64,000 nucleotides of DNA, taken from an uncultured Bacilli bacterium. Lineage in GTDB: Bacteria; Bacillota_I; Bacilli_A; RF39; UBA660. The translations under genes and the position numbers were made by a program. The notes beneath the pieces are model-generated. The model saw nothing but the letters and a program-made list of their open reading frames with translations. It was not told the origin of the DNA and did not search any database. The DNA is taken from NCBI GenBank assembly GCA_934086145.1, contig CAKOHV010000001.1:53731-117730 (forward strand), written 5' to 3'. This document shows, piece by piece, positions 9,128-61,415 of this stretch (the stretch's first letter is position 1; every line of letters begins with the position of its first letter).

Positions 9128-9150
9128 CAAACAAAGAAAGTGGAGTAAAT

Positions 9151-9645: not shown

Positions 9646-9693
9646 CACTTTTTTTTCTTATCCAATATGCTATAATAAAAAAAGGGTGGTCTA

Positions 9694-12293: not shown

Positions 12294-12383
12294 GGCCATC
12301 GCCCTTGCTAATCAAGCCCTTCACAACAAGGAAAATTAAATCCTTGTTTTTTTCTTCTTTAAACACTCTTTTCATGTTATAAT
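12294..12383. repeat. 90-bp perfect direct repeat, copy 2 (carries the likely functional promoter for the 12408 gene)
   Basis: Identical to 11879-11968. Includes a pseudo 3' end encoding ...AIALANQALHNKEN* and the extended -10 tgttataat at 12375-12383. Confidence 0.9.
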
Positions 12384-12407
12384 TAGTTAGAATAGGAGTG
12401 CTATTAA

Positions 12408-16184: not shown

Positions 16185-16254
16185 GAAAAAAGACCCCAAA
16201 ACTTGCTTTGTTTCTGATAAATGTTACAATTAGTAAGAAGACGGAGAGTACCTT

Positions 16255-16893: not shown

Positions 16894-16905
16894 TTCCTTT
16901 TTTTT
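16880..16905 (+). terminator. Rho-independent terminator overlapping the stop codon
   Basis: Stem ggaatc/gattcc with a 6-nt loop, then a T8 run. Confidence 0.6.
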
Positions 16906-16914
16906 GAGCAAAAT

Positions 16915-16943
16915 TTGACTTAATTAAAACATTCTATAATAAT
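16915..16943 (+). promoter_or_regulatory. Promoter (-35 TTGACT, AT-rich -10) for paralog gene 1. An almost identical copy precedes paralog gene 2 at ~17996-18030
   Basis: ttgacttaattaaaa...tataataatagtaaaccgaNaaataaaaaacattttttgtataaaaagggggaacc is duplicated upstream of both paralogs. Confidence 0.4.
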
Positions 16944-16996
16944 AGTAAACCGATAAATAAAAAAACATTTTTTGTATAAAAAGGGGGAACCAAAAA

Positions 16997-23853: not shown

Positions 23854-23868
23854 AATAGAGGAGATAAA

Positions 23869-24669
23869 ATGAAAAAAGATAAGAAAAAAATAATTATAAT
23901 AAGCTTAATTGCTGTTGCAGTTATTGCTTTAATTGTTATCATCGTTGTAGCTTGCTTACCTAAAAAAAATAAAACAGAAGACAAAAAGCAGGACGAAGCT
24001 CCAATTTACACACCAGAAATTGCTGCTGCTCAATTAAAGGACTATGAAATAGGCAACTTTAAATTTCATGATATAAAAGTTCTTCCTGCTTGTGCTAAAG
24101 AAGAAGAGTGCTTTTTAGCTAATAGCTACTTTAGACAAATCAGTTATAAAGAAGATAATGCCGTAATTAATGAAGCTTTAACAACTATCAATAATAAAAC
24201 TAATGAATATTATGATCGTATAAATGCTCCAGAAAATACAAAATCATGTGACAAATATGTTAGAAATCTATACTATAAACCATCTGTTGAAACTTTTGAA
24301 AATGACCAATACATTAGTATTGCTGTTTCTAATAATCTTGGAGCACTATGTGATGCCAAATCTCTTTATGAAGATGGTGAATATTACATCTATAGTAAAG
24401 AAAGTCAAACAATGCTAACTAAAGAAGAAATATTAACTTCTTTCAATCTAACAGAAGCTGATATTCTTAGCAAAATTAATAAATACTATAAAAAAGATAC
24501 TTTAGCTGATTTAGATTACAATATCTTTATTAGTGTAACTGGGGAATTAAAAATAACATTCCTTGGCGATGATGGTCGTTATTATATTACTCTTCAAGAA
24601 TTGTATAAAGAAAGTCAAGATGATCAAAAAAATCAAAGTAGTGGTCTTACCGATATTGATTTTGAATAG
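23869..24669 (+). CDS. Hypothetical N-terminally membrane-anchored protein co-transcribed with giant pilin-like gene 1
   Basis: Starts 15 nt after the pilin stop with RBS AGAGGAG. TM segment IIIISLIAVAVIALIVIIVVA. Cys-containing extracytoplasmic domain. Confidence 0.55.
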   Translation: MKKDKKKIIIISLIAVAVIALIVIIVVACLPKKNKTEDKKQDEAPIYTPEIAAAQLKDYEIGNFKFHDIKVLPACAKEEECFLANSYFRQISYKEDNAVINEALTTINNKTNEYYDRINAPENTKSCDKYVRNLYYKPSVETFENDQYISIAVSNNLGALCDAKSLYEDGEYYIYSKESQTMLTKEEILTSFNLTEADILSKINKYYKKDTLADLDYNIFISVTGELKITFLGDDGRYYITLQELYKESQDDQKNQSSGLTDIDFE

Positions 24670-24679
24670 TGAACTTCTT

Positions 24680-24710
24680 AAGCTTACACCTAAAAGTGTA
24701 GGCTTTTTTT
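24680..24710 (+). terminator. Rho-independent terminator
   Basis: Stem aagcttacac/gtgtaggctt (9 of 10 paired) with a 6-nt loop, then a T7 run. Confidence 0.65.
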
Positions 24711-24836
24711 AATACTTTTACACTTTAAAATTTTAATTTTTTTCTTAACTAAGCCCTTTAAAATCGAGGACTTTTAAAAGAAGAAAATTAAAATTCAACA
24801 AAAATGAAAAAGATATCACAAATTTATAAAAATGTA

Positions 24837-24869
24837 TGGTATAATTCTCGATAGAATAGAGGCGTTTAT
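24837..24869 (+). promoter_or_regulatory. Extended -10 promoter (TGgTATAAT) + conserved leader, upstream of giant gene 2
   Basis: tatggtataattctcgatagaatagaggcgtttatATG; homologous to the elements at 19955 and 29442. Confidence 0.55.
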
Positions 24870-27800
24870 ATGCATAATAAAAAAGGTTTTACATTAGTTG
24901 AATTATTAGCTGTTGTAGCCATTCTTGGTATATTATCCATTGTTGCTATCGGTGCTTATAGTGGCATAACCAATAGATCAAAACAAAAAGCCTATGAATC
25001 TAAAGTTTCGCAAATCGAAACATCAGCTGCTAAATGGGCTCGTGAAAACAATATTGATCGTACAACTTCCATTTCTGTTAACAAACTGGTTGTTGAAGGT
25101 TACTTAACGGCTGATGAAGCAACTGAAAATGGTTTATCAACTATCAAAAATCCTGTTAATAACGAAAATATGATTTGTAAGATGGTTGAAATAACTTATA
25201 AAAATGGTGAGATTCAAACCAAATTTATTGATAATAAAAATAATTGTACGCTTGCTGAGCAAGCTCTAAATGATACGAAGATAAAAGTTGTTGCGTACCA
25301 AAAAGGGGTTACGGGAGCATCTGCTGCTTTAAGTCCTAATTCAAACAATGCCTTAGCATGGACAAACAAAGCCTTAACTTTAGTTGTTTCTAGTGATAAT
25401 TATAAAGATGAAGCCCAAAATAGTCGTGAAACCAATCCTATTGTTTCAGTATCCTTCGATTTTAATGGTAATACAACTGAAAAAAATGTTGTCATTGATA
25501 GTACTAATCCTTCTAAAAAGAAGTCTAATGTTTATACAGGTAACACCTATATTGATAATATTGATGCTTATTACAATGTTTTCAACGTTGATGCAACTGT
25601 CATTCTTGATAGTAACGTAGTTGTTTCATACCGCTTTAAAGATGGTTCAACTAAATCACGTACTATCAACGTTCGTATTGATAAAGAAGAAGCAACCGCT
25701 TCCGTTATTGCTACATCAGATTGGGTTACAGCCACCCAAAAAGTAATCGTTAAACTAGACGATGGTAATGGTAGTGGTGCGCGTCGCTTCTATGTTGGCG
25801 TTGGTAATTCTTACAATGCACCAGGCGTTAATAAAGTTGAATTATGTGATGCCAACGGCAAAAATTGTAAATATGAAAAAGAATACAATGCTCCAAGTGT
25901 TGGAGAATACAACATTTGGACTGAAGATATGGTTGGTAATATTTCCGTCCAACCTAAAAATAAAATCTCAGTCAATAACGTCGATACTTCTACACCATCA
26001 TGTAACTTCGATAATATCGGAACTATGGGTCAAGGCAACTGGTATATAACTGATGTTATCCCACGTATGCGTACAAGCGTCGCTGGTAATAGTGGTTTAT
26101 ACTTTGGTATTTCTAAAATTCAAAATGGTAAAGATAATCCTAATTATTCTAATTACGTTGGGTATGGTAGTATAGGTATCAGCCAAGCTGCTAAATTAAG
26201 TGATACTAAGGGTCAAGATTATATTTGTTATGTAAAATCATTAGCGGGTACAAAAACCCAGAAGAAAACTAATATTAAAGTTGATACAATTCCACCAACT
26301 ATTACCATATCACCAACTAATCAATCTAGTAGTTATGTTAAAGAAAAAACTATTACAATTAAAGCTCGTGATACTATTAGTGGTTTAGGTAAAAATAGTC
26401 GTGTAGAATATGCTTGGAGTACCGACAGCAATAACGAACCATCTACTTGGCAAACGGTTGCTCTTCCAGGAACTGACTATACTGGGGAAAATGGTCCAAC
26501 TGATGAAAAATCAGTAACCATAACCGCTAAAGGTATGACTGGTGTTTACTACCTTTGGATTAAAAAAGGAACAATTTCTGATGCTGCTGGTAATGCTAGT
26601 GAAGGCTCTCAAGGCAAATCAGTAAGATATGGTCCTTTCAAATTTGATAACACACCACCTTCTTGTGAATTGCAAGCTGCTGGTACTATCGGTGATAACG
26701 CTTGGTATACAAGCAATGTCACTATAAGCTTTAAAACGCATAGTGATAATGATAGTGGCGTTAAAAACTATGGTTTAAGTAGTATAACGGGTTCTAAAAC
26801 CGCTTCCTTAACTAGTGATATAAGTTCTAAAACTTATACTGGTTACATTGAAGATAACGCCGGTAATAAGAGTTCTTGTAGTATTACAGTTAAAAGAGAT
26901 GCTACTAAACCAACTTGTTCTTTAGAAGCTAAAGGAACCAAAGGCACAAATAATTGGTTTACTAGTGATATCACGGTCAAATTTAAAACATCAACTGATG
27001 CTATGAGCGGCCTCGTAAGAAAAGGAATAAATAGTATCAATAATGCTGATACACTACGGGTTACAACTGACAACACTGGTACAAAATATATTGGTTATGT
27101 TAAAGATAATGCGGGAAATGTCGGAACCTGTGAAGCAACTTACAAGATTGATAAAACAGCTCCTACATGTGCCCTTAAAGTTACAGGAAATCTTGGTGAT
27201 AATGGTTGGTATAAGAGTAATACTACGATTACAGTTGATACTCATACTGATGCCACAAGTGGTGTCGATGGTTATGGTTTAAGTACCAATGGTTCAATTA
27301 ATTATACCAATACTTACCTCACTCAGACTCTTGATACCAAAGGTGTAATATACACTGGTTATATTAAAGATAAAGCTGGTAATACGGCAACTTGTGGCCC
27401 AGTAACTATTAAAAAGGATAGTAAAGCTCCATCATGTCAATTACAGGCTTCTGGTACTAAAGGCGAAGACAATTGGTATGTAACTAACGTTAACGTTAGT
27501 TTCAAAGCTCCATCAGACGCCACAAGTGGTATTGCCAAAAAAGGTATTGGTGGTTTTGATAATGCTGATACTCTTACCATAAATTATGATACAACTGGTA
27601 CAACATATTATGGTTTTATTAAAGATAATGCTGGTAACTCAGCGATTTGTAATGCTACTTATAAAGTCGATAGAACTAAACCAACATGTTCATTAAAAAC
27701 AAGTGGTACAGCTGGTGAAAATGGTTGGTACCGAGGCGATGTTGCTGTCGAATTCGCTAGTTATAATGATTGGGCTAGTGGTATAAGTGGTCATGGTTTA

Positions 27801-29237
27801 AGTACTAACGGCACTGCAAATTATACTAATACCAAACTTACCCAAACTAGCGATACCACTGGAACAACATACACTGGCTATGTCAAAGATAATGCTGGTA
27901 ATAAGAACTCTTGTAGTGTTACAGTAAAAAGAGACACTCAAGCTCCATCGTGTGAATTACAAGCCAGTGGAACCGAAGGAGAGAATGGTTGGTATAAAAG
28001 TGGTATTACTGTTTCCTTTAAATCCGCCACTGATACCACAAGCGGAATTGCTCTAAAAGGTCTAGGTGGGTATTATGGTTCAGCTACAGAAACACAAAAT
28101 GATAATACAGCTGGCAAGAATTATACCGGCTATGTCAAAGACAACGCTGGTAATACGGCAACGTGTACAGCAACTTATAAAATTGATAAAACCGTTCCAA
28201 CTTGTTCAATAACAGCTAGTGGAACTTATGGTTGGAATAGTTGGTATATTACAGATGTTGCTATTTCATTAAAGAGTAGTGGAACAGATTGGCCAAGCGG
28301 CGTTAAAAGCTATGGTATAGGAAGTTTAGGTGGCGAAAAATCAGCTACTTTAAATTACGATACTTCTTCTAAAAAATATACTGGCTATATTGAAGATGAA
28401 GCTGGTAATACGAATTTTTGTTCTATTGAAGTTAAAAGAGATGCTACTAAACCTTCTTGTACGTTAAGCAAGTCATGTTCAACCTGGGGAGAAAATGGTT
28501 GGTGTAAATCTAATGTTGGTATTAAATTTAGTTCAACTTATGATGCTATGAGTGGGGTAGATGGTTATGGTATAGGTGGCTATTATAACTATCCAAGAGA
28601 AGCAACACTAGATTACGACTCTGGAGCCAATGGTATATCGTACTTTGGATATATTGTTGATAAAGCTGGTAATACAAGTTCATGTAGTACAACAGCATAT
28701 CGTGATACAACTCCACCAGCTGCTTCATTGTGTTCTACTGCTGTTAGCAAAAGTGGAACCCTTGGTAATGAAGGATGGTACAGGTCAGATGTTACTGTAT
28801 CTACAACAAATAGTGATATAAGTTACTTTAGATTAGATGGTCAAGCTAAAACAACGCTTACAACAGATGGCTACCACACAGTCACTTTATATGATGCTGC
28901 TGGTAACAGTAGAGAGTGTGATAAAATTAAAATCGATAAAACTAATCCGACTATAGACATATTGAGTTACGTACCAGCATGTCCAAGTGATGCTAAAGTA
29001 AATTATCGTATGGGGCATGTTACTGATGCTACAAGCGGTATATCTAAAAACTCATACTATTGGGTTGGTACGAGCAAAGATGACAAAAAATATTATCCAG
29101 GAGCAACTCCTCACGAATCAAATGAAGGCGTAGAAGGTTTTTGCTCGGGGAAAAACACTTTATATACTGCATATCATACATGTGATGTAGCAGGTAATTG
29201 TATTAATGGATCTTGGTCATGGGATACAACGCCATAG
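24870..29237 (+). CDS. Giant (1455 aa) prepilin-type protein, paralog 2 (~8 Ig-like modules)
   Basis: MHNKKGFTLVELLAVVAILGIL prepilin signal. The first ~600 aa are highly similar to gene 1. More repeat modules. Same C-terminal Cys-rich domain (EGFCSG...CDVAGNC). Confidence 0.8.
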   Translation: MHNKKGFTLVELLAVVAILGILSIVAIGAYSGITNRSKQKAYESKVSQIETSAAKWARENNIDRTTSISVNKLVVEGYLTADEATENGLSTIKNPVNNENMICKMVEITYKNGEIQTKFIDNKNNCTLAEQALNDTKIKVVAYQKGVTGASAALSPNSNNALAWTNKALTLVVSSDNYKDEAQNSRETNPIVSVSFDFNGNTTEKNVVIDSTNPSKKKSNVYTGNTYIDNIDAYYNVFNVDATVILDSNVVVSYRFKDGSTKSRTINVRIDKEEATASVIATSDWVTATQKVIVKLDDGNGSGARRFYVGVGNSYNAPGVNKVELCDANGKNCKYEKEYNAPSVGEYNIWTEDMVGNISVQPKNKISVNNVDTSTPSCNFDNIGTMGQGNWYITDVIPRMRTSVAGNSGLYFGISKIQNGKDNPNYSNYVGYGSIGISQAAKLSDTKGQDYICYVKSLAGTKTQKKTNIKVDTIPPTITISPTNQSSSYVKEKTITIKARDTISGLGKNSRVEYAWSTDSNNEPSTWQTVALPGTDYTGENGPTDEKSVTITAKGMTGVYYLWIKKGTISDAAGNASEGSQGKSVRYGPFKFDNTPPSCELQAAGTIGDNAWYTSNVTISFKTHSDNDSGVKNYGLSSITGSKTASLTSDISSKTYTGYIEDNAGNKSSCSITVKRDATKPTCSLEAKGTKGTNNWFTSDITVKFKTSTDAMSGLVRKGINSINNADTLRVTTDNTGTKYIGYVKDNAGNVGTCEATYKIDKTAPTCALKVTGNLGDNGWYKSNTTITVDTHTDATSGVDGYGLSTNGSINYTNTYLTQTLDTKGVIYTGYIKDKAGNTATCGPVTIKKDSKAPSCQLQASGTKGEDNWYVTNVNVSFKAPSDATSGIAKKGIGGFDNADTLTINYDTTGTTYYGFIKDNAGNSAICNATYKVDRTKPTCSLKTSGTAGENGWYRGDVAVEFASYNDWASGISGHGLSTNGTANYTNTKLTQTSDTTGTTYTGYVKDNAGNKNSCSVTVKRDTQAPSCELQASGTEGENGWYKSGITVSFKSATDTTSGIALKGLGGYYGSATETQNDNTAGKNYTGYVKDNAGNTATCTATYKIDKTVPTCSITASGTYGWNSWYITDVAISLKSSGTDWPSGVKSYGIGSLGGEKSATLNYDTSSKKYTGYIEDEAGNTNFCSIEVKRDATKPSCTLSKSCSTWGENGWCKSNVGIKFSSTYDAMSGVDGYGIGGYYNYPREATLDYDSGANGISYFGYIVDKAGNTSSCSTTAYRDTTPPAASLCSTAVSKSGTLGNEGWYRSDVTVSTTNSDISYFRLDGQAKTTLTTDGYHTVTLYDAAGNSRECDKIKIDKTNPTIDILSYVPACPSDAKVNYRMGHVTDATSGISKNSYYWVGTSKDDKKYYPGATPHESNEGVEGFCSGKNTLYTAYHTCDVAGNCINGSWSWDTTP
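26650..28720 (+). repeat. Ig-like coding repeat array inside giant gene 2 (approximate bounds)
   Basis: Eight modules starting PSCELQAAG, PTCSLEAKG, PTCALKVTG, PSCQLQASG, PTCSLKTSG, PSCELQASG, PTCSITASG, PSCTLSKSC. Confidence 0.45.
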
Positions 29238-29298
29238 ATAAAAAATATAAAAGAATGTTTTATGTTAAACACTAAAACATAATTACTATAAATAAAAA

Positions 29299-29329
29299 AG
29301 TTAACGTTCAAGAAACGTTGGCTTTTTTT
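29299..29329 (+). terminator. Rho-independent terminator after giant gene 2
   Basis: Hairpin around aacgtt/aacgtt arms (agttaacgtt-caagaa-aacgttggct), then a T7 run. Confidence 0.5.
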
Positions 29330-29441
29330 AAATCTAAATATTTTTGATATACGTTTAATAATTGCTAAAGCAAATATGAAAAAAACTTATTTAAAAAAAT
29401 AATTTTTATTATAAAAGTTAATTTAAATCATCAAAATTGTA

Positions 29442-29474
29442 TGATATAATCATTAGTAGGATAGAGGAGTTTGT
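29442..29474 (+). promoter_or_regulatory. Extended -10 promoter (TGaTATAAT) + conserved leader, upstream of giant gene 3
   Basis: tatgatataatcattagtaggatagaggagtttgtATG. Confidence 0.55.
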
Positions 29475-32400
29475 ATGAGTAGTAAAAGAAGTCGTAGTAA
29501 AAATAATAAAAAAGGATTTACCTTAGTTGAATTGCTTGCCGTTGTTGCCATCTTAGGAATTGTATCTGTCATTGCCATTGGAGCATATAATGGAATTTCA
29601 AATCGTTCAAAACAAAAAGCTTATGATTCTAAGGTCTCTCAAATTGAAACATCAGCTGCCAAGTGGGCTCGAGAGAATAATATTGATCGAACAACATCCA
29701 TTTCTGTTAATAAATTAGTCGTTGAAGGCTACTTAACTGCTGATGAAGCGACCGAAAATGGTCTTTCCATTATTAAAAATCCTAAGACTAATGAAAATAT
29801 GATTTGTAAAATGATTGAAATAAGTTATAAAAATGGGGAAATTCAGACTAAATTCATCGATAGTAAGGACAATTGTACTTTAGCCGAGCAAGCTTTAAAT
29901 GATACTAAAATAAAAGTAATTGCCTATCAAAAAGGTGTTACTAAAACGGCTGCAGCTTTAAATCCAAACTCTAATAATATTTTACCTTGGACAAACAAAG
30001 CTGTAAGTTTAGTTGTTTCTAGCGATGCTTATAAAGATGAAGCCCAAAATAGTCGTGAAACCAATCCAATTGTTTCTACTTCTTTTGACTTTAGTGGTAA
30101 TAGTAACGAAAAGAAAGTTATTATAGATAATTCAAATCCTTCAAACAAAAAATCCAATGTATATTCTGGCAAAGCTTATGTTGACAATCCCGATGCTTAC
30201 TATAATGTCTTTAACGTTGATGCCAGCATTATTCTTGATAGTAACGTTGTTGTTACATATCGTTTCAAAGATGGTACAACAAAATCAAGAACTATTAATG
30301 TTCGTATTGATAAAGAAGAAGCTACAGCTTCTGTAATTGCTGAATCTGACTGGGTTACAAATACTCAAAAAGTAATTGTTAAAATCGACGATGGTAATGG
30401 TAGTGGAGCTCGTCGCTTCTACGTTGGAGTCGGTAATGCCTATAATGCTCCTGGAGTCGAAAAGGTTGAATTATGTGATAGCAATGGTAAAAACTGTAAA
30501 TATGAAAAAGAATATAGTGCTCCAAGTGTTGGTGAATATAACATTTGGACAGAAGACATGGTTGGCAATATTTCTGTTAATCCTAAAAATAAAATTTCTG
30601 TTAATAACGTTGATACATCTGTGCCATCATGCTACTTCGATAATATCGGAACAATGGGCCAAAATAATTGGTATGTAACAGCCGTAACACCTCGTATGAA
30701 CACTAGTACTGCCGGAATAAGTGGACTATATTATGGTATTTCTAAAGGAACCAATAATCCTAATTACAAAAATTATGTTGGGTATAATGCCGTTGGTACA
30801 AGTACCGCTGCCAAAATTAATAACGATACACAAGGTCAAGATTATACCTGTTATGTTAAATCACTTGCTGGTAATGAAGCTAAAAAGACCTCAACAATTA
30901 AAGTTGATACAACTCCACCAACTATAACAGTTAGCCCAACTAAACAAGAAACTTATGTTAAATCACAAAAAATTACCATCACAGCTAAAGATACAATTAG
31001 TGGTTTAGGTAAAAATAGTAAAATAGAATATGCTTGGAGTACTGATAGCAATAACGAACCATCTACTTGGCAAACGGTTAATCTTCCAGGAACTGACTAT
31101 ACTGGGGAGAATGGCCCAACTGATGAAAAAACAGTAACCATAACCGCCAAAGGAATGACTGGTGAATATTATCTTTGGATAAAAAAAGGTACTATAAGTG
31201 ATGTTGCTGGAAATAGTAGTGTAGGAAAAAATGGTAAGTCAATTAATTATGGTCCATTTAAATTTGATAATACTGCGCCAGAATGTGAACTCAAAGCCGA
31301 AGGAAAAAAAGGAGATAATGATTGGTATACTGGTAATGTTGAAATTAGTTTTAAATCAACTTCAGATGTTGGCAGTGGTGTTAAAAGTTATGGTATTAAT
31401 AGTACAACTGGTTCTGAAACAGCTTCCTTAACTAGTGATACAAGTTCTAAAACTTATACTGGTTACATTGAAGATAAAGCTGGTAATAAGAGTTCTTGTA
31501 GTATTATAGTAAAAAGAGACACTGAATCCCCATCATGTGAATTACAAGCAACCGGAACAAAGGGCGATGATGGTTGGTATAAAAGTGATATTAAAGTTTC
31601 CTTTAAATCAGCCACTGACAAAACAAGTGACGTTGATAAAAAAGGGATAAATGGTATTGATAAAGATGATACTCTTGATGTTTATACAGAAACCGACGAT
31701 AAAGGCGAAACTTATACAGGCCACGTAAAAGACAAAGCCGGTAATACTGGAACTTGTAAGGCAACTTACAAAATAGATAAAACAGCCCCAAGTTGTAGTA
31801 TAAAAATTTCAAGTAAACCAACTGGTAATAAAGATTGGTATGTAAGTGATAGTGTTACTATAGAGTTTGATGGTGACGTTACTGATGCCCGTAGTGGTGT
31901 AAGTGGTTATGGTTTAAGTAGTGATGGAAAAGCTAATTACAAAGATAACAAAATAACTCATACCGCAGATACTACTGGAATAACTTACATTGGCTATGCT
32001 ATAGATAAAGCCGGCAATACGACAACATGCGGTTCGGTTACCTTTAAAAAAGATTCAACAAAACCTTCTTGCTCATTAAAAACAAATTGCTCAGCTATTG
32101 GGACGCAAGTAAGTGATACAACAGACAAATATTGGTGCAAGTCAAGTACCGTAGACGTTGAATTTGCTACGACAAATGACGCTACTAGTGGGATTGTAAA
32201 AAAAGTTATAAGCACTGAAGGTGAAGCTGAAGCTAAAGATAGTATTTTTAGCAATATTCCTGATACAGGGGCTAACGGTAAAAGTTATACAGGTTTTGTG
32301 GAAGATGAAGCTGGTCATAAAGCCGATTGTAAGTTAACTGTTTATAAAGATTCAGTTGCTCCGGCAGAATCTTTATGCACCAGTACTAAGCTTAAAGAAA

Positions 32401-32978
32401 GTGTTGCCGAAGGTACTGAAGCAGGTAGAAATGACTGGTATCGAGGTAATGTTACAATAACATCAACCGATAGAGATGTCAGTTACTTTACGGTAAATGG
32501 TAAGGGAAGTTATACAAGCAGTTATACTATTGAATCTGAAGGAGAACATGAGATAAACATTACTCTATATGATGCGGCGGGTAATGGTATGAGTTGCTCA
32601 ACCAAATTTATAAAAATCGATAAAACTAATCCAATATTTATCACAACAGGAGACGATCCAGGGTGTCCGACTAAAAAAAAAGAAACTGATCCAGAATATA
32701 AAACATGGCGTAAGGGTATCGTAACAGACGATGTAAGTGGCATAGATCCGAACCCTGAATATACAAATTATAAAATTGGTGCAACAGCAGACACTATGGC
32801 TGATTTTAATCCTGCTACAAAGAAAAAAGGTGCAAAAATCGGGTACGAAGGCTTCTGCTCAGGTGGTACAGAAGTACATATAAAATACAACATCTGTGAT
32901 ATGGCAGGTAATTGCATTAAAGGCAATAATTTTTGGAAACAACCACCACCTCCACCTCCTGAAACCAAAACTTCGTAA
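29475..32978 (+). CDS. Giant (1167 aa) prepilin-type protein, paralog 3 (~4 Ig-like modules, poly-Pro C-terminal tail)
   Basis: MSSKRSRSKNNKKGFTLVELLAVVAILGIV prepilin signal with a longer leader peptide. Diverged C-terminal region ending FWKQPPPPPPETKTS. EGFCSG...CDMAGNC is retained. Confidence 0.8.
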   Translation: MSSKRSRSKNNKKGFTLVELLAVVAILGIVSVIAIGAYNGISNRSKQKAYDSKVSQIETSAAKWARENNIDRTTSISVNKLVVEGYLTADEATENGLSIIKNPKTNENMICKMIEISYKNGEIQTKFIDSKDNCTLAEQALNDTKIKVIAYQKGVTKTAAALNPNSNNILPWTNKAVSLVVSSDAYKDEAQNSRETNPIVSTSFDFSGNSNEKKVIIDNSNPSNKKSNVYSGKAYVDNPDAYYNVFNVDASIILDSNVVVTYRFKDGTTKSRTINVRIDKEEATASVIAESDWVTNTQKVIVKIDDGNGSGARRFYVGVGNAYNAPGVEKVELCDSNGKNCKYEKEYSAPSVGEYNIWTEDMVGNISVNPKNKISVNNVDTSVPSCYFDNIGTMGQNNWYVTAVTPRMNTSTAGISGLYYGISKGTNNPNYKNYVGYNAVGTSTAAKINNDTQGQDYTCYVKSLAGNEAKKTSTIKVDTTPPTITVSPTKQETYVKSQKITITAKDTISGLGKNSKIEYAWSTDSNNEPSTWQTVNLPGTDYTGENGPTDEKTVTITAKGMTGEYYLWIKKGTISDVAGNSSVGKNGKSINYGPFKFDNTAPECELKAEGKKGDNDWYTGNVEISFKSTSDVGSGVKSYGINSTTGSETASLTSDTSSKTYTGYIEDKAGNKSSCSIIVKRDTESPSCELQATGTKGDDGWYKSDIKVSFKSATDKTSDVDKKGINGIDKDDTLDVYTETDDKGETYTGHVKDKAGNTGTCKATYKIDKTAPSCSIKISSKPTGNKDWYVSDSVTIEFDGDVTDARSGVSGYGLSSDGKANYKDNKITHTADTTGITYIGYAIDKAGNTTTCGSVTFKKDSTKPSCSLKTNCSAIGTQVSDTTDKYWCKSSTVDVEFATTNDATSGIVKKVISTEGEAEAKDSIFSNIPDTGANGKSYTGFVEDEAGHKADCKLTVYKDSVAPAESLCTSTKLKESVAEGTEAGRNDWYRGNVTITSTDRDVSYFTVNGKGSYTSSYTIESEGEHEINITLYDAAGNGMSCSTKFIKIDKTNPIFITTGDDPGCPTKKKETDPEYKTWRKGIVTDDVSGIDPNPEYTNYKIGATADTMADFNPATKKKGAKIGYEGFCSGGTEVHIKYNICDMAGNCIKGNNFWKQPPPPPPETKTS
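31270..32340 (+). repeat. Ig-like coding repeat array inside giant gene 3 (approximate bounds)
   Basis: Modules starting PECELKAEG, PSCELQATG, PSCSIKISS, PSCSLKTNC. Confidence 0.4.
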
Positions 32979-33126: not shown

Positions 33127-35730
33127 ATGAATTTTTATGATAAAAATATTAAAGAAACTTTAAAATTATTAGAATCTAGTGAAGATGGTTTATCGAAGAA
33201 AGAAGCCCAAAAACGTTTAGAAAAATATGGTCCTAATGAACTACCACGACCAGCGCAAGAGAGTATTTTTCAACTATTCATTTCCCAATTTCAAAATCCC
33301 ATCGAACTTATTTTAGTCATGACTGTTATTTTTTCCTTTATTGCTAAGGAATATATTGATGGCACTGCCTTAATCTTTATTATTTTAGTTGATGTCATTA
33401 TGGGAACTTACGAAGAATGGAAAGCTCGCAAAGATGCCGAAAGTTTAACTAATATGATCAAAGTAACGGCTCGTGTTATTCGTGATGGCAAAGAAATTGA
33501 AATTCCTTCTAAAGAACTTGTCGTAGGGGATTTAATGCTTCTTGAAAGTGGCGATAAGATAAGTGCTGATGCTCGTATCATTGAATCACATAATTTTCAA
33601 GTAAATGAGTCTTCTTTAACTGGGGAAAGCCTTGGTATTGTCAAAAATAATGAAGCTTTAAAAGAAGGAATTCCTTTGGCCGAACGTAAAAATATGGCTT
33701 ATGCAGGAACCACGGTCATTACCGGTCGCGCCCAAGTTATCATAACGGCTACCTCAACGGCTACTGAAATTGGTCGCATTGCTGATAAAGTAAGTAATAC
33801 GGTTGAAGAGAAATCCCCATTAACCATCAGAATCGAAAAATTTTCTAAGCAAATCAGTATTATTATAATTTTTATTGCTATTATTACAACTTGTGTTTTA
33901 TTAAGTAAAGGTTATCCTTTAAATTCAATTTTTTTAAGTGTTATTGCCCTAAGTGTCTCAGCTATGCCTGAAGGTCTTCCTCTTGCTTTAACGATGGCCT
34001 TAACAATTGCTTCTAAAAGAATGGCTAAGAAAAATGTTATTGTAAAAAAATTAAATTCAGTCGAATCTCTGGGAAGTTGTACGGTCATTGCTTCTGATAA
34101 AACGGGCACCCTAACTGTTAATGAACAAACGGCTAAAGAAATCGTCTTGGCTGATGGTTCTAGATATGAAGTAACTGGATCTGGTTATAATGGCGATGGA
34201 AAAGTAATTCCGCTTGCGGGGGCTGACTTAGAGAGAGCTCGTGAAATTGCTTTACTTGGAGCTCTTAATAATGAAGCACACCTTGAACTAAAAGGGGATA
34301 CATGGGACTCTTTTGGTGATTCTATTGATATTGCTTTCTTAAGCTTAGCGGCTAAATTAAATATTACTTCAAAACCAACTATCATCGAAACGATTCCTTA
34401 TGAATCAGAAAATCAATTTTCAGCTGTTTTTTATCAAAAAGGCCATGATACTTACTGTACTATTAAAGGCTCATTAGAAAAAATTTTAACCTTTGCTACT
34501 CCCGAAGCTAAATATTATCAGCAAAATGAAGAATTAACTAAAAAAGGTTATCGTATTATTGCTCTTGCTGATGGTAAGGTAAATGGTACTACTTTAGCTG
34601 ATATTAAAAATTTAACTTTTAAAGGAATGGTTGCTTTCATTGATCCAATTAGAAATGAAGTTAAATCATCTTTACAAGAATGTCAAAAAGCCGGCATAAA
34701 AGTTGTTATGATAACAGGGGACCATCCTTTAACGGCCTTTGCGATAGCTAAAGAATTAGGACTATGTTCTAAGAAAGAAGAAGTTGCAACTTTTAAAGAA
34801 GTTGATGAATATCGTAAAAGAGGGGAAAAACAATTTGATGAGTTTGTTAGTAAAATAAAAGTATTTTCTCGTGTAACGCCTCTTGATAAACTAGATATTG
34901 TTAATTCTTTTAAAAGACAAGGTGAATTTATTGCGGTAACAGGTGATGGCGTTAATGATGCTCCGGCTATTAAAGCGGCCAATATTGGTATTGCTATGGG
35001 TTCCGGAACTGATGTTGCTAAAGAAACTGCTTCCATGATTGTTACTGATGATAACTTTACTTCAATTGTTGAGGGAATTAAAGAAGGACGTACGGCTTAT
35101 AGCAATATTCGTAAAATTATTTTATTCTTATTAGGTTGTGGCTTTGCTGAAGTAGCTTTCTTCCTTTTATCAATTGCTTTTGGTTATGATATTCCGCTTG
35201 TTGCTATTCAATTACTATGGTTAAACATTGTTACCGATGGGATGCAAGATGTGGCTTTATCTTTTGAAAAAACCGAAAAAGATGTCATGAATGCTAAACC
35301 TCGTTCTACAAAAGAGTCACTATTTTCTAAAGACTTAATGATTGAAGTTTTAATTTTAGGTATTACAATAACCTTTGTGGTTTTCTTAACTTGGAAATTC
35401 ATGCTTGATAATGAAACAGACCTTATAACAGCTCGTTCTGTTATCATGATGCTAATGGTTTTCGTTCAAAATGTTGACGTCTTAAATTGCCGTAGTGAAA
35501 AGAAATCCGTCTTTAAAAAGACTTTATTAGATAATAAAATGGTCTTATTAACCGTTTTTGGTTCAATTATTCTCCAAGTTATTGTTTCTGAACTTGATTT
35601 TACTGCTCAATTCTTAAAAGTAACTCCTTTAGCCCCAATAACTATTGCTAAAATATTCTTCTTATCACTAATTATTATTGCGGTCTTTGAAATTTATAAA
35701 ATTTTCCTTTTATTATTTAAGAAAGACTAA
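33127..35730 (+). CDS. Cation-translocating P-type ATPase (type IIA, Ca2+-ATPase-like)
   Basis: 867 aa with the DKTGTLT phosphorylation site (IASDKTGTLTVNE), TGES-like actuator region and GDGVNDAPAIK hinge motif. Extended -10 tggtaaaat upstream. Confidence 0.85.
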   Translation: MNFYDKNIKETLKLLESSEDGLSKKEAQKRLEKYGPNELPRPAQESIFQLFISQFQNPIELILVMTVIFSFIAKEYIDGTALIFIILVDVIMGTYEEWKARKDAESLTNMIKVTARVIRDGKEIEIPSKELVVGDLMLLESGDKISADARIIESHNFQVNESSLTGESLGIVKNNEALKEGIPLAERKNMAYAGTTVITGRAQVIITATSTATEIGRIADKVSNTVEEKSPLTIRIEKFSKQISIIIIFIAIITTCVLLSKGYPLNSIFLSVIALSVSAMPEGLPLALTMALTIASKRMAKKNVIVKKLNSVESLGSCTVIASDKTGTLTVNEQTAKEIVLADGSRYEVTGSGYNGDGKVIPLAGADLERAREIALLGALNNEAHLELKGDTWDSFGDSIDIAFLSLAAKLNITSKPTIIETIPYESENQFSAVFYQKGHDTYCTIKGSLEKILTFATPEAKYYQQNEELTKKGYRIIALADGKVNGTTLADIKNLTFKGMVAFIDPIRNEVKSSLQECQKAGIKVVMITGDHPLTAFAIAKELGLCSKKEEVATFKEVDEYRKRGEKQFDEFVSKIKVFSRVTPLDKLDIVNSFKRQGEFIAVTGDGVNDAPAIKAANIGIAMGSGTDVAKETASMIVTDDNFTSIVEGIKEGRTAYSNIRKIILFLLGCGFAEVAFFLLSIAFGYDIPLVAIQLLWLNIVTDGMQDVALSFEKTEKDVMNAKPRSTKESLFSKDLMIEVLILGITITFVVFLTWKFMLDNETDLITARSVIMMLMVFVQNVDVLNCRSEKKSVFKKTLLDNKMVLLTVFGSIILQVIVSELDFTAQFLKVTPLAPITIAKIFFLSLIIIAVFEIYKIFLLLFKKD

Positions 35731-41348: not shown

Positions 41349-41369
41349 AAAGTGCGATGCACTTTTTTT
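41349..41369 (+). terminator. Rho-independent terminator
   Basis: Stem aagtgc/gcactt with loop gat, then a T7 run. Confidence 0.65.
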
Positions 41370-41434
41370 CTTTGGCTAAATATTGTCATGTAATTTCTAA
41401 TATGATACCATGTTATAGAGTAGAGGATGATTTT

Positions 41435-43249
41435 ATGAAAAAAAATATTTTATTACTATTAATACTTTTAATTCCTATAACTATAAAGGCTTATGACCAA
41501 TATTCTCTTGCTGATTATGCCTATTTTGACCCTATAAGTAACGCAAAGTGCGATGAAACCAATTATTGGACTCCTTTTTACCAAGACACCACTTGCTATC
41601 GTTTTATCACTCTTGAAGATAACGATACATCAGCGCAAGCTACCTTAAAAGTTATGTTGGATCATAATGTGGGCTTTGATACTTATCAGAACTATGCCAA
41701 TATTTTAAAACAAGTTCAAGAAAGTTGGGTTAACTATCAAGGAACTCTCGATTTAATCGATGAAGATACCGTTGTCAAATTTATGAAACTTAATGCCAAG
41801 CCTGAAATAAGTAGTGAAAACCCAAGCGCTATCAGCGTTAACAATAATGGCTTAGTATACCCTCGTTTTATGTTAAATTCCTATTACTATAATAATCAAA
41901 CATTAATTAATTACTATGGCTTTTGGTCGAAAGACTTATATCCATCTAATCAAAACTATGCTTATACTATTACAGAATATGGTAATAATCGTCTTGTTGC
42001 CTTAACTGAAAAACGTGGCATTCGTCCGGTTCTTACCGTGCGTAAACAACAACTAACCAAATCTTCATCTTCCCAAGACTTTACTTCCCAAATCACTAAA
42101 AAATATTCATATCAATATTCATCAACTAAGTATGATAATTTTACCTATAAACAACTTCAAGGCTTTACTAAAACCAAAGACAAATTAGTTTTTTACTCAA
42201 GTAATAATGCTAATCCTGAAAAAGGCTTAGTTATATCATATACGGGATCTGACTATCATACTTTATATAAAATATCTTATGATAATACTGGCCATGGTAA
42301 TGATATGACATATAATAGTAAGACTAACGAAGTATTATTAGTTGGTCCTAATAATTATAAAGAAATATTTGTTTACAATGCTGATACGATGGAACATACT
42401 AAAACTTATTCTGAGAATGTAACTGGTTATAGTGCTATTGCTTATGATAAATATAATGATTTATATTTCGGTTACAGTGGTCAAAGAATTTATGCCTTAG
42501 ATAATTCTTTTAACCGTCTATATTCCTTTGATGCTAGTTTCCTTGAAACAACCCAAGGTATGGAATATCACAATGGTTACATTTATATGACAACCTATGA
42601 AGGTGGCTGTAGTTCTTCTTATCAACTATGGTGTTTAAATACCACCTCATCAGCGCTTGTTTATGTTTATAATGCTAAACTTAATACCGATAAGACGCCA
42701 TCATCATCTTTTGGTCGTTTAGAAAAGATTATATATCTAGGACCTAAGATTGGTGAACTTGAATCTATTAGCTTTGATGATGCTGAGGCTATCTTTGGTT
42801 ATGCTACGCAATATTATGATGCCAATAATACTTATCAATTTTATACGACTTCCTTAAATAATTTGGCAAATAAACCTTCTTATACCATTAAATATCTTAT
42901 TGAAGAAAATAGTGCCAAAATCAGCATTTTATCTAATGAAGAACTGGCTTTAGCTGAAGGTTTTACCGCTGTTAGTAAGGCTATTATGGAAAAAGAAATA
43001 AAATCTACTGACTCAAATTTTTCCGTTAAAATTTGCGATAATTATAATAATTGTAGTACCGACAAAATAAACGTATCGCAACTTTTTAATACTAGTCAAG
43101 ATAATCAAAATAATATGCAAGACCCCAAGCCAAATCCATCCCCTGAAAATCCCCAAACAGGTGCCTTTGTTTCATTAGCTGTTATCATAATCGGCGGTAT
43201 CTTTAGTTTAATTGGCTTATTTGGTATTAAAAACAAATTTAAAATCTAA
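41435..43249 (+). CDS. Secreted cell-surface protein with C-terminal NPQTG sorting signal (sortase-substrate-like)
   Basis: Signal peptide MKKNILLLLILLIPITIKA. C-terminus ENPQTGAFVSLAVIIIGGIFSLIGLFGIKNKFKI, i.e. motif, hydrophobic segment and basic tail. Start set at ATG 41435 behind RBS GAGGATGA. Confidence 0.6.
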   Translation: MKKNILLLLILLIPITIKAYDQYSLADYAYFDPISNAKCDETNYWTPFYQDTTCYRFITLEDNDTSAQATLKVMLDHNVGFDTYQNYANILKQVQESWVNYQGTLDLIDEDTVVKFMKLNAKPEISSENPSAISVNNNGLVYPRFMLNSYYYNNQTLINYYGFWSKDLYPSNQNYAYTITEYGNNRLVALTEKRGIRPVLTVRKQQLTKSSSSQDFTSQITKKYSYQYSSTKYDNFTYKQLQGFTKTKDKLVFYSSNNANPEKGLVISYTGSDYHTLYKISYDNTGHGNDMTYNSKTNEVLLVGPNNYKEIFVYNADTMEHTKTYSENVTGYSAIAYDKYNDLYFGYSGQRIYALDNSFNRLYSFDASFLETTQGMEYHNGYIYMTTYEGGCSSSYQLWCLNTTSSALVYVYNAKLNTDKTPSSSFGRLEKIIYLGPKIGELESISFDDAEAIFGYATQYYDANNTYQFYTTSLNNLANKPSYTIKYLIEENSAKISILSNEELALAEGFTAVSKAIMEKEIKSTDSNFSVKICDNYNNCSTDKINVSQLFNTSQDNQNNMQDPKPNPSPENPQTGAFVSLAVIIIGGIFSLIGLFGIKNKFKI

Positions 43250-58562: not shown

Positions 58563-58781
58563 ATGAAACAAGTTGTTTTAGCTAATATCAAAAAAGATAA
58601 AATGTATGACTATCTTAAACAGAACTCTTTCTATATAAAAGATTTAAATCGTAATCCCTTACTTTACACCCAGTTTAAAGAATATATCAAAGACAAATAT
58701 CATCTACGTCTAACCGACAAAGTAGAGGGAATTATAAACGACATTGAAACAGTAAGTGATATCATGAAAGTGATAAAATAA
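58563..58781 (+). CDS. Hypothetical small protein (72 aa)
   Basis: Start chosen at ATG 58563 behind RBS GGAGA. A degraded copy of its 3' end sits at 59181-59255. Confidence 0.45.
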   Translation: MKQVVLANIKKDKMYDYLKQNSFYIKDLNRNPLLYTQFKEYIKDKYHLRLTDKVEGIINDIETVSDIMKVIK

Positions 58782-59017
58782 TGGTATTAACAAAACTTGA
58801 TGACATTAGGAATCTTAATTGTGTAACTCATTATCGTTATGCAAATTACCCTTTAGTGATACCAGTAAATACACTTATCACAGAAACAAAATTTGTCTTT
58901 AAACATGACACTAAAGTCGGTACGCCTATTTATGCATTTCAATTTATTTTTTGCACAAATGGTGATACAGGTGCCGAGTATCCTGTAATTCGTTGCATAA
59001 GTGAGAGAATTAAATAA
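58781..59017 (+). CDS. Hypothetical small protein (78 aa)
   Basis: ATGA overlap with the upstream gene, so translationally coupled. Confidence 0.4.
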   Translation: MVLTKLDDIRNLNCVTHYRYANYPLVIPVNTLITETKFVFKHDTKVGTPIYAFQFIFCTNGDTGAEYPVIRCISERIK

Positions 59018-59037
59018 TTAATTGCATTTACTAATAG

Positions 59038-59067
59038 AAGATGATAGAAAATATCATCTCTTTTTTT
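59038..59067 (+). terminator. Rho-independent terminator (gatgat...atcatc family)
   Basis: Stem agatgata/tatcatct with loop gaaaa, then a T7 run. Same core motif as the terminators at 60093 and 61186. Confidence 0.65.
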
Positions 59068-59180
59068 CTTTTGATTAAACACAGTACTTTTACATTAAAA
59101 ATAATAATTTTTTATAAATGACAAGATAAGGAAGAATTACTTTACACTAATTAAAAAAATATCAAAAATAGCTACATCCC

Positions 59181-59255
59181 GCGTATAACCGCCAAAATAA
59201 AGGGTATTATAACTAATGCAAAAACAATAGACGATATCATGAAAGCGATAAAATA
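59181..59255 (+). pseudogene. Fossil 3' fragment of the 58563-58781 gene
   Basis: gcgtataaccgccaaaataaagggtattataactaatgcaaaaacaatagacgatatcatgaaagcgataaaatag is ~75% identical by eye to the last 75 nt of the 58563 gene (...ggaattataaacgacattgaaacagtaagtgatatcatgaaagtgataaaataa). No start codon or RBS. Confidence 0.35.
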
Positions 59256-59340
59256 GTGTAAATCGTTTGAAACTGTGTTGAAATTGTGAAGAAAAGATAG
59301 TAAAATATAATCTATAAAATAGAAAGAAAGGTAGAGAAAA

Positions 59341-60078
59341 ATGAAAAAAATGAAAAATAATAGAAAAGGTTTTACATTAGTAGAATTATTGGCCGTTATC
59401 GTTATCCTTGCTATTTTAATGGTAGCAGCTGGATCAGCCGTAATGTCAACAATGAATAATGCTAAAGTTAATACATTTAAGAATGAGGCATTATCAGCAA
59501 TTAACATGGCTACTAACATGTATACTGAAATTTCTATGAACTCTGATGATGCAGGAAATTATTTAGTAAATGATACCGATGCTAAATACAAAGGAATGTG
59601 TGTAACATTACAAGGTCTTGTAAACAATGGTTACTTAGAAAAAGATTTACATGATGGAACTACTTACGGAACTATTATTGTTGAAGTACCATTCGATGGT
59701 GGCGCAACTAAATACTCAATTTGGACTTCTGATGGAACTTATGGTATCCAAGGATATGAAAAGAACAAAATCAGTAAGTTGAAATTTACTAGTGCAAACA
59801 ACAACGTAATTACTAATGATTACACAGTTGGTGGCAGTGGTATTGTAACTAAATTAAATGGTATTAAAGCTATAAATAATGCTACTCATTCAACAGTAGC
59901 TAGTGGTCAAACAGCAAATACTATAGCAAGTGCAGATGTAGCAACTAATAAATTTAAGTATCCTTCTGATGGTACTGTTGGACCAAAAGTTGCTTCAATT
60001 CAAACAATTGGCGGTGCTAATGGTGGTACTGGTACAACTTATAACAATATAACTTGTATAAATAACAAAATTCAATAA
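59341..60078 (+). CDS. Type IV pilin-like protein (245 aa), tandem copy 1; candidate major pilin
   Basis: MKKMKNNRKGFTLVELLAVIVILAILMVAAGSAV is a class III prepilin signal (G|FTLVE) plus hydrophobic alpha-1 helix. RBS AAAGGTAGAG. Identical protein to the 60429 gene. Confidence 0.75.
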   Translation: MKKMKNNRKGFTLVELLAVIVILAILMVAAGSAVMSTMNNAKVNTFKNEALSAINMATNMYTEISMNSDDAGNYLVNDTDAKYKGMCVTLQGLVNNGYLEKDLHDGTTYGTIIVEVPFDGGATKYSIWTSDGTYGIQGYEKNKISKLKFTSANNNVITNDYTVGGSGIVTKLNGIKAINNATHSTVASGQTANTIASADVATNKFKYPSDGTVGPKVASIQTIGGANGGTGTTYNNITCINNKIQ

Positions 60079-60092
60079 TTAGTTATTGAATT

Positions 60093-60124
60093 AAAAAGGA
60101 TGATGACAAATATCATCTTTTTTT
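60093..60124 (+). terminator. Rho-independent terminator (gatgat...atcatc family)
   Basis: aaaaaggatgatgacaaatatcatcttttttt. Confidence 0.6.
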
Positions 60125-60428
60125 CTGCCTATTTTATCTACTACAATCGCATATTTTTTAAGAAATTGTTTATAAAAAAATACAGTATAAAATTATTACT
60201 ATTGTAAGAGAAAAATAATTATTATGTTTTACTTTACATCAAATGAAAAAATATAAATAATAGAGAATTAAGTATATTTGCCTAAATATAGGGCATGATA
60301 AAAAATATAGAGGTGATCTGCTACATTGTAAATGTGATAAATTTGTGTCAAATATATAGAAATATGTTGAAATTGTGAAAAAAAAATAGTAGAATTAATA
60401 TGAAAATAGATAGAAAGGAAGAAGGAAA

Positions 60429-61166
60429 ATGAAGAAAATGAAAAACAATAGAAAAGGTTTTACATTAGTAGAATTATTGGCCGTTATCGTTATTCTTGCT
60501 ATTTTAATGGTAGCAGCTGGATCAGCCGTAATGTCAACGATGAATAATGCTAAAGTTAATACATTTAAGAATGAGGCATTATCAGCAATTAACATGGCTA
60601 CTAACATGTATACTGAAATTTCTATGAACTCTGATGATGCAGGAAATTATTTAGTAAATGATACCGATGCTAAATACAAAGGAATGTGTGTAACATTACA
60701 AGGTCTTGTAAACAATGGTTACTTAGAAAAAGATTTACATGATGGAACTACTTACGGAACTATTATTGTTGAAGTACCATTCGATGGTGGCGCAACTAAA
60801 TACTCAATTTGGACTTCTGATGGAACTTATGGTATCCAAGGATATGAAAAGAACAAAATCAGTAAGTTGAAATTTACTAGTGCAAACAACAACGTAATTA
60901 CTAATGATTACACAGTTGGTGGCAGTGGTATTGTAACTAAATTAAATGGTATTAAAGCTATAAATAATGCTACTCATTCAACAGTAGCTAGTGGTCAAAC
61001 AGCAAATACTATAGCAAGTGCAGATGTAGCAACTAATAAATTTAAGTATCCTTCTGATGGTACTGTTGGACCAAAAGTTGCTTCAATTCAAACAATTGGC
61101 GGTGCTAATGGTGGTACTGGTACAACTTATAACAATATAACTTGTATAAATAACAAAATTCAATAA
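60429..61166 (+). CDS. Type IV pilin-like protein (245 aa), tandem copy 2
   Basis: Encodes a protein identical to the 59341 gene with only a few synonymous nucleotide differences. Its own RBS GGAAGAAGGA. Confidence 0.75.
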   Translation: MKKMKNNRKGFTLVELLAVIVILAILMVAAGSAVMSTMNNAKVNTFKNEALSAINMATNMYTEISMNSDDAGNYLVNDTDAKYKGMCVTLQGLVNNGYLEKDLHDGTTYGTIIVEVPFDGGATKYSIWTSDGTYGIQGYEKNKISKLKFTSANNNVITNDYTVGGSGIVTKLNGIKAINNATHSTVASGQTANTIASADVATNKFKYPSDGTVGPKVASIQTIGGANGGTGTTYNNITCINNKIQ

Positions 61167-61170
61167 TTGA

Positions 61171-61216
61171 TTGTTGTTTAGCAACAAAAAGGTGATGATT
61201 AATATCATCTTTTTTT
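61171..61216 (+). terminator. Two consecutive hairpins (ttgttg-tttag-caacaa, then gatgat-taat-atcatc + T7), the second being a rho-independent terminator
   Basis: Read directly from the sequence; shares the gatgat/atcatc core with the two upstream terminators. Confidence 0.55.
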
Positions 61217-61415
61217 GTGCTTTTAAATAAACTTAAGCCAATAATTGTTATTAAAAGATACTTGTAGTTTCAATAAGTTATAAAAACATTATTCATAATA
61301 ACTTTCTTCTTTTAAAACGTCGTCAATTTCTTGCCTTTTTTCTAACTTCTTTATTGCATTTTGGCCCTCGACAATGTATGATTAAGGTAGTGAAAATAAT
61401 GCGAGGGTGGTTTTG

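Follow-up and report, generated by a model that had tools for sequence, protein, structure and literature searches.

Why should a gut bacterium carry, one directly behind the other, two genes that encode exactly the same pilin? This question is raised by a 64,000-nucleotide (nt) stretch of DNA from an uncultured Bacilli bacterium (contig CAKOHV010000001.1, positions 53,731 to 117,730; hereafter the window), in which two open reading frames (ORFs) on the forward strand both encode one identical prepilin of 245 amino acids (aa), beginning with MKKMKNNRKG and continuing with FTLVELLAV. The locus was found to hold stand-alone type IV pilin genes in a tandem array of three units, with one truncated copy (unit 0) and two intact ones (units 1 and 2, whose genes occupy slots 1 and 2). 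To judge from the sequence comparisons presented below, the two intact copies appear to be true type IV pilin genes in tandem, and their product is a reasonable candidate for a major subunit. An old tandem duplication, followed by gene conversion and involving a prepilin that likely serves as a type IV filament subunit, is, taken as one explanation, an account that we consider probable.

Alignment of the two coding sequences (CDSs) revealed mismatches at CDS nt 6, 18, 66 and 111 only, all of them synonymous, in agreement with an earlier note on this DNA, which had described two genes for the same 245-aa protein with few synonymous differences. From CDS nt 112 to two bases beyond the stop codon, the copies do not differ at all, and the exact repeat common to both amounts to at least 627 nt. 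In a self-BLAST of the region, positions 59137-60128 and 60229-61220 proved homologous, with 92% identity over 999 columns. Upstream of the start codon, the identity in 60-column bins is 59-75%, with good conservation only in the last ~65 nt. The duplicated unit had previously been described as running from about 80 bp upstream of the start through the terminator; its upstream limit has to be moved, since the homology begins ~200 nt upstream of the start. These upstream parts contain remnants of the 3' end of the ylbE-like gene, the stretch at 59137-59258 resembling its last 125 nt (58659-58783, 74% identity) and a 21-nt piece being present three times, at 58659, 59137 and 60229. Because the ylbE 3' end was copied along with each pilin unit, the arrangement points to a true tandem duplication of a ~1.09-kb unit, which would comprise the ylbE 3' end, the intergenic promoter, the pilin gene and the terminator. 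Units 1 and 2 would both be intact and monocistronic, each with a sigma-A-like promoter, a ribosome-binding site and an intrinsic terminator. As the flanks are 25-40% diverged, the duplication is presumably old.

The exact 245-aa pilin occurs on eight contigs of the public collection, and related loci (L numbers below) allowed the two slots to be compared between strains. The 148-kb contig of L086 is 100% identical to the window in all 60-column bins of the locus, except for CDS nt 502-656 of slot 2. In this cassette, which spans residues ~168-219, 60 of the 155 columns differ from the window sequence (allele alpha), 12 nt of indels included, and the resulting allele, beta (P0122), encodes 241 aa. 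The alpha sequence is found in slot 2, as in the window, in L087, L089 and L090, all from other samples. Slot 2 of L087 (start at 4089) has a 9-nt deletion of the first ATGAAGAAA, its copy beginning with MKNNRKG and measuring 242 aa; as a side observation, the pilin leader has two ATGs in the same frame, and losing the first one, as in this copy, is tolerated. The contig of L088 breaks inside slot 2, and that of L090 begins inside slot 1.

As for the more divergent strains, the parC gene of L084 is 99.1% identical to that of the window and its pilin locus only about 91%. Both L084 cassettes differ from alpha, from beta and from one another, and its two copies agree with each other throughout their first 300 nt, a pattern that looks like concerted evolution with different tract boundaries. 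In L001, whose parC region is 97% identical, an alpha-like slot-1 gene is present and the contig stops exactly at its end. A sister species (L002-L004, about 85-87% nt identity) has a single pilin gene at the same site. Because the sister species is single-copy and the divergent strains two-slot, the duplication would be specific to this species and would predate the divergence of its strains. Tandem pilin paralogs also recur at the same genomic site in distant relatives. The contrast in divergence is marked: the adjacent parC is 99% identical, vs. about 60% identity in the cassette.

From these comparisons we infer that the coding cores would be kept alike through repeated gene conversion, each slot normally having its own hypervariable cassette, and that, in the window strain, a conversion tract from slot 1 would have overwritten the slot-2 cassette, leaving two identical genes. 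The putative tract would cover at least 60930-61084 and at most 60540 to about 61168. The identical pair, which the earlier note did not recognise as a derived, strain-specific state, seems therefore best explained by a recent conversion within an old duplication.

Two simpler explanations of the identity were weighed against this one. If the duplication were itself very recent, the genes could be identical without any gene conversion, as the 100% identity over the 3' 627 nt might suggest. This is very improbable, however, given the low upstream identity reported above, a synonymous divergence of 3.6% in the 5' 111 nt, the presence in L084 and L085 of the same two slots with orthologous flanks and different cassettes, and the beta cassette in slot 2 of the near-clonal L086. 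Alternatively, a single pilin gene, or an alpha-beta pair, could have been expanded or mis-threaded into identical copies during assembly: the exact repeat exceeds short-read length, and the contigs of L001, L088 and L090 break at or inside it. Such breaks are what a real 627-nt exact repeat produces, and the two copies can be told apart by their diverged flanks and by four synonymous sites specific to the slot. Moreover, alpha was recovered in slot 2 of three further assemblies from other samples (L087, L089 and L090), and the two-slot layout was also found, with non-identical copies, in L084 and L086. The last cassette-specific site (61084) and the first slot-specific downstream site (61169) are 85 nt apart, and because a single read or k-mer can span this distance, an assembly artefact is exceedingly unlikely to account for the pair.

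The preferred reading, of conversion within an old array, also has to accommodate unit 0, the ORF of which begins on the stop codon of the ylbE-like gene. It has kept the C-terminal variable region and the tail, and is without promoter, signal peptide and alpha1 helix. Its product is 57% identical (E 9e-28) to residues 167-243 of P0012, the intact first (slot-0) pilin of strain L085, and 31% identical to the C-terminus of the window pilin. In L085, 82 nt separate ylbE from the P0012 gene, behind which comes another pilin gene, of the window type. Two near-invariant positions of the family are altered in unit 0 (G229 to D and N241 to S), and in L084 and L001 it is frameshifted, broken by 14- and 18-nt deletions as well as stop codons. 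Because of these interruptions, unit 0 is better regarded as a decaying pseudogene than as a conserved ORF. It would be the remnant of the slot-0 gene, the promoter and first ~167 codons of which a ~580-nt deletion would have taken away. A role for unit 0 as a silent cassette donor was considered and downgraded, the copy being frameshifted in sister strains.

Each unit, the truncated one included, ends in a hairpin followed by a T7 run. All of these elements belong to a single repeat family, its members starting at 59026, 60085 and 61177 (1059 and 1092 nt apart), in line with the three related terminators reported previously; that the first of them is part of a truncated pilin copy had been missed. 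This first terminator (T0) presumably now ends the ylbD-ylbE transcript. A consensus terminator scan passes over all three, their AT-rich hairpins having too few G-C pairs. Promoter-like sites are no more numerous here than in shuffles of this AT-rich DNA, and it is only by their conservation between units and strains that the two sites upstream of the pilin genes (P1 and P2) are backed. Scans of the window with Rfam and for tRNAs gave no matches; as the Rfam scan was empty, no riboswitch is placed upstream of the pilins. Two minus-strand ORFs, 59172-59519 (115 aa) and 60395-60607 (70 aa), run antisense across those 5' parts of the pilin genes that code for the hydrophobic N-terminus; they are almost certainly spurious and were rejected as genes. 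The coordinates of the array and of the other prepilin genes of the window are given in the table.

Table. Features of the pilin array and the giant prepilin genes (positions in the window)
Feature	Position	Strand	Basis
ylbE-like gene (72 aa), upstream anchor of the array	58563..58783	+	Weak Pfam YlbE hit; ylbD-ylbE-pilin synteny
Unit 0, 5'-truncated pilin copy, 78 codons	58781..59017	+	Homology to the C-terminal part of P0012
Terminator hairpin T0, of the truncated copy	59026..59065	+	Repeat family D2; -8.7 kcal/mol, T-run
ylbE 3'-end remnant, unit 1	59137..59258	+	Identity to 58659-58783 (see text); repeat families D3, D4
Promoter-like site P1, TTGAAA-17-TAAAAT	59278..59306	+	Equivalent position kept in unit 2 and relatives
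Pilin gene, slot 1 (245 aa, allele alpha)	59341..60078	+	ORF, Pfam/TIGRFAM hits, structure model
Hypervariable cassette, slot 1 (CDS nt 502-656)	59842..59996	+	Sole alpha/beta difference; dN/dS
Terminator hairpin T1	60085..60124	+	Repeat family; -10.5 kcal/mol
Diverged ylbE 3' remnant, unit 2	60229..60350	+	Third copy of D3; homologous to 59137-59258
Promoter-like site P2, TTGAAA-17-TAGAAT	60367..60395	+	Equivalent position in unit 1
Pilin gene, slot 2 (245 aa)	60429..61166	+	Four slot-2 5' synonymous markers, then alpha sequence
Slot-2 cassette, 155 nt	60930..61084	+	Alpha in the window, beta in L086; putative minimum conversion tract
Terminator hairpin T2	61177..61216	+	Repeat family; -15.5 kcal/mol
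Giant prepilin, 1287 aa	19990-23853		GFTLVELLAV N-terminus; weak HYR-domain hits
Giant prepilin, 1455 aa	24870-29237		GFTLVELLAV N-terminus; weak HYR-domain hits
Giant prepilin, 1167 aa	29475-32978		GFTLVELLAV N-terminus; weak HYR-domain hits

Concerning the protein itself, its N-terminus (MKKMKNNRKG followed by FTLVELLAVIVILAILMVAAG) is a class III signal, with a basic leader ending in Gly and a Glu at +5. The Pfam N_methyl profile scores 37.6 bits (cutoff 21.2) and TIGR02532 31.2 (cutoff 16.3), both above their cutoffs, so that the earlier identification of the product as a prepilin is upheld. Cleavage after Gly10 would give a mature protein with an N-terminal Phe and Glu5, predicted to consist of an alpha1 helix of ~54 residues and a head of beta sheet, with Cys87 and Cys239 as a conserved pair. 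The AlphaFold2 models have a 54-residue N-terminal helix followed by beta strands, with a predicted local distance difference test score (pLDDT) of 86 for the full length, and a pLDDT of 93 and a predicted template modelling score (pTM) of 0.91 for the head only; confidence is lowest in the cassette.

Some 70 full-length relatives (38-93% identity) were found, all from gut metagenomes or metagenome-assembled genomes (MAGs) labelled Bacilli and without annotation past the N-terminal motif; a family-profile scan of genome contigs gave, among the matches listed, only distant (<=45%) prepilins from other MAGs, none of them of the window species. An alignment of 61 members shows no variation at G10, E15 (mature Glu5) and C87, and next to none at C239 and over residues 10-66; residues ~155-225 are partly unalignable, and the tail GGTGxTYxxIxCIN is conserved. 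The ratio of nonsynonymous to synonymous substitution rates (dN/dS, Nei-Gojobori) is 0.08-0.16 for residues 11-165 and 0.6-1.2 for residues 166-222, reaching about 5 in the cassette of one close pair, with very small counts. The core is thus under purifying selection and the cassette is not. Constraint on core and tail, combined with freedom in the middle, is the pattern expected of a polymerising subunit with a surface-exposed patch.

The 245-aa protein would most likely be the abundant structural subunit of a type IV filament, the machinery of which would be encoded elsewhere in the genome. Indirect indications of a major subunit are that each copy has its promoter-like site and terminator hairpin, that the cassette is hypervariable and that tandem copies recur. 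The variable cassette would be exposed on the filament surface; strains with two cassettes would make mixed or alternative filaments, and the window strain one type from two promoters. The same filament might also carry the giant prepilins.

Several observations weigh against the account as a whole. The codon usage of the pilin genes gives no high-expression signal. In a Foldseek search against the PDB, the head had no significant match to a solved pilin (best E 0.49, template modelling score below 0.2) and, as a result, its pilin fold is suggested by the order of its secondary-structure elements only; likewise, a sequence-profile search of the PDB matched alpha1N only (MshA, geopilin, S. sanguinis PilE1 and PilA). 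Genes for T2SSE, T2SSF, an A24 peptidase or Tad components are absent from the 64-kb window and from the ~9 kb read to its left, where the check for neighbouring assembly genes suggested by the earlier note came out negative. No machinery locus in related MAGs could be assigned to the window species on the basis of G+C content and DnaI identity. Finally, the polarity of alpha and beta is set by parsimony, and an import of beta from another strain into an alpha-alpha ancestor would be a less parsimonious course of events.

Two other roles for the protein have to be set beside that of filament subunit. It could be a competence or secretion pseudopilin which, in the manner of ComGC or GspG, forms a short fibre across the periplasm or wall instead of a surface-exposed pilus, an alternative already raised in the earlier note and here disfavoured. 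Weak N-terminal matches to GspG, ComGC, ComGD and ComGE, together with a PilB/GspE-class ATPase of related MAGs that also resembles ComGA, speak for it; yet all four scores are far under the curated cutoffs and cover alpha1N only (GspG, TIGR01710: 28.7 bits vs. a cutoff of 88.85, N-terminus only; ComGC, NF040999: 19.7 bits vs. a cutoff of 75, residues 9-54 only). A length of 245 aa vs. about 100 for ComGC, a cassette that is hypervariable within the species under relaxed or positive selection, and a multi-copy, monocistronic gene with no comG-like operon and no comGA or comGB nearby make such a role improbable. As for Flp/Tad pilins (PF04964), no Flp_Fap match was obtained, the +6 residue is Leu and not Tyr, and the length is 245 aa vs. 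50-80 aa. In this clade, the class III signal could also serve as a general export or anchoring device, as in archaeal bindosome proteins, with the 245-aa protein as one of many such cargoes, a surface protein that does not polymerise. The large expansion of GFTLVELLAV proteins in this clade, giants of 600-1450 aa included, and a head without structural match to solved pilins would be in line with this, but the almost complete conservation of the alpha1 region (residues 11-66) and of Glu5 in 61 relatives fits helix packing in a filament core, and filament subunits typically combine a hypervariable middle with conservation of core and tail; a non-polymerising protein is accordingly quite improbable.

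If the protein is a filament subunit, its assembly machinery has to be sought away from the array. The source is a spore-forming human-gut Bacillota bacterium: the window has 31% G+C and, with its left flank, encodes SpoIVA, SpoVIF, YlbD, a SirA-like protein, LexA, ParE and ParC. It holds five prepilin-type genes, the two of 245 aa and the three giants, which have alpha1N in common with the small pilin, as well as a motif of 22 residues (pilin residues 124-145, 50% identity). Between the first two giants, at 23869-24669, lies the gene for a membrane protein of 266 aa. The ylbD-ylbE-pilin gene order is kept in relatives, and no pilus-assembly gene was seen downstream of the pilin in the sister species.

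When 91 sequences, the window and 90 other loci, were scanned for Walker motifs and with phmmer, Tad ATPases turned up in L021 and L055 only, and a PilB-class ATPase in L040; homologue searches with both ATPase types gave thousands of matches. In L021, a Bacilli MAG, a Tad-type operon (5353-17472; Flp, two TadE-like proteins, CpaE, CpaF, TadB and TadC) is interleaved with five T4a-like GFTLVELLAV prepilins of 180-504 aa, the N-terminal ~135 residues of which are 30-35% identical to the window pilin; GFxxxE pilins within a Tad locus are unusual. L055 (9355-20127) has a single 156-aa pilin in the ylbD-ylbE-pilin slot and, ~6 kb downstream, after EF-P, a Tad locus (TadE, TadE, CpaE, CpaF and TadB) in which no Flp gene was seen. 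Compact Tad loci are also present in P0246 and P0334. An orphan PilB/GspE-class ATPase adjoins the gene for prolyl-tRNA synthetase (ProRS) and a small prepilin in L040 (5348-7264) and in P0427/L105 (9520-11983); its Walker A motif reads GATGAGKST, it contains two Cys pairs (CPEC and CEHC), and neither a platform nor a peptidase gene lies close to it. P0246, P0427 and P0334 were tried as machinery of the window species and rejected, since they belong to other species (G+C 24.7%, DnaI only 48% identical, G+C 28.4%). That a PilB-class system polymerises the window GFxxxE pilin is a conservative guess. In this clade, the genes for type IV filaments seem to lie one by one between housekeeping genes and, because its pilus components are scattered in this way, the absence of neighbouring machinery is no sign that a pilus is absent.

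Among known systems, tandem genes for similar major pilins had been said to occur in other Gram-positive type IV pili, and this is borne out by PilE1 and PilE2 of Streptococcus sanguinis (PMC6497953). Their adjacent genes are about 80% identical and both products enter one heteropolymeric filament (PMC6497953, PMC10628169), strain CGMH010 even having three major pilins (PMC11121087). By analogy, this pair would be the nearest functional counterpart of the window array, with which it shares a Gram-positive host, adjacent paralogous pilin genes, identical class III N-termini (FTLVEL...) and high identity. The S. sanguinis pilins are encoded within a pil operon together with the machinery, are about 140 aa long and differ by a loop indel. 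By contrast, the window genes are orphan, monocistronic and located downstream of parC-ylbD-ylbE, the mature pilin has 235 aa and a head that matches no solved structure, and the array consists of identical copies with a truncated third one, the variation in other strains being confined to a discrete 155-nt cassette.

In the pilE/pilS system of Neisseria, many silent cassettes feed a programmed mechanism dependent on a guanine quadruplex (G4), with high-frequency switching. The window resembles it in having, next to an expressed pilin, a promoterless, 5'-truncated copy that retains the variable 3' part, and in the non-reciprocal transfer of a variable segment between stretches of conserved sequence. 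It differs in that the remnant is single and frameshifted in sister strains, and in that one conversion event (alpha over beta) would account for the observed state. No expressed allele derived from the window remnant was seen, its cassette type being expressed only as the intact slot-0 gene of L085; a conserved silent donor, as in pilE/pilS-type variation, is thus not found in the window array.

A looser parallel is offered by flagellin, with its conserved ends and hypervariable middle (PMC7018530): in both, the parts forming the filament core are under strong purifying selection, and an internal surface segment is extremely diverse within the species and exchanged by recombination. Flagellin nevertheless belongs to another protein superfamily and relies on another machine for its export and assembly. 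The pseudopili of the Com system (ComGC) and of the type II secretion system (GspG) have in common with the window pilin the prepilin-type N-terminus and Glu5, but the window protein exceeds them 2-2.5-fold in size, includes a hypervariable segment and is encoded outside a comG or gsp operon. Precedents exist for an unusually large major pilin, PilA of Myxococcus xanthus (PMC11046646), and for minor pilins with large C-terminal modules, PilB of S. sanguinis (PMC8179133), the latter bearing on the 1167-1455-aa prepilins at 19990-32978. Neither has any detectable sequence or structure similarity to the window pilin past alpha1N.

The locus documents a stand-alone type IV pilin family in uncultured human and animal gut Bacilli, with a head that is confidently predicted and unmatched. 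It also offers a clean natural case of concerted evolution, with a homogenised core and a diverse surface cassette, in which one strain would have lost its diversity by a single conversion. Being hypervariable within the species, this presumed surface locus should help in typing strains, and it is a candidate for targeting by phages or by the immunity of the host. One may go further and see in the array a minimal pilin-variation device of a Gram-positive gut commensal, in which two expressed slots, next to a remnant, would swap a 155-nt surface cassette by gene conversion, the filament being built by a dispersed, possibly Tad-type machinery that would also incorporate the giant modular prepilins. 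We consider this extended version rather unlikely; if true, near-clonal populations would switch between alpha-beta and alpha-alpha filaments, for instance to escape phages or antibodies.

Across the clade, the site downstream of ylbD-ylbE is a conserved pilin island. In a relative with 24.5% G+C (L093, 8279-10495), it is occupied by prepilins of 134, 137 and 164 aa and a 56-aa ORF, followed by AP endonuclease 2. A distant member of the family (55% identity) lies in a three-pilin tandem array (383, 228 and 230 aa) in L103 (8057-15661) and L104 (2681-11073), directly after parC; next come genes for YfhO and GT2 glycosyltransferases, which may act in pilin glycosylation.

Elsewhere in the window, two large proteins, of 1258 aa (12408-16184) and 630 aa (41357-43249), have no Pfam hit at E 0.01 or better; the former is conserved in the species, with exact matches on 14 contigs. 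A complete P-type ATPase of 867 aa is encoded at 33127-35730, and a 438-aa ORF at 9694-11010, similar to P-type cation ATPases in their C-terminal domain only, could be a paralog that is truncated or has diverged.

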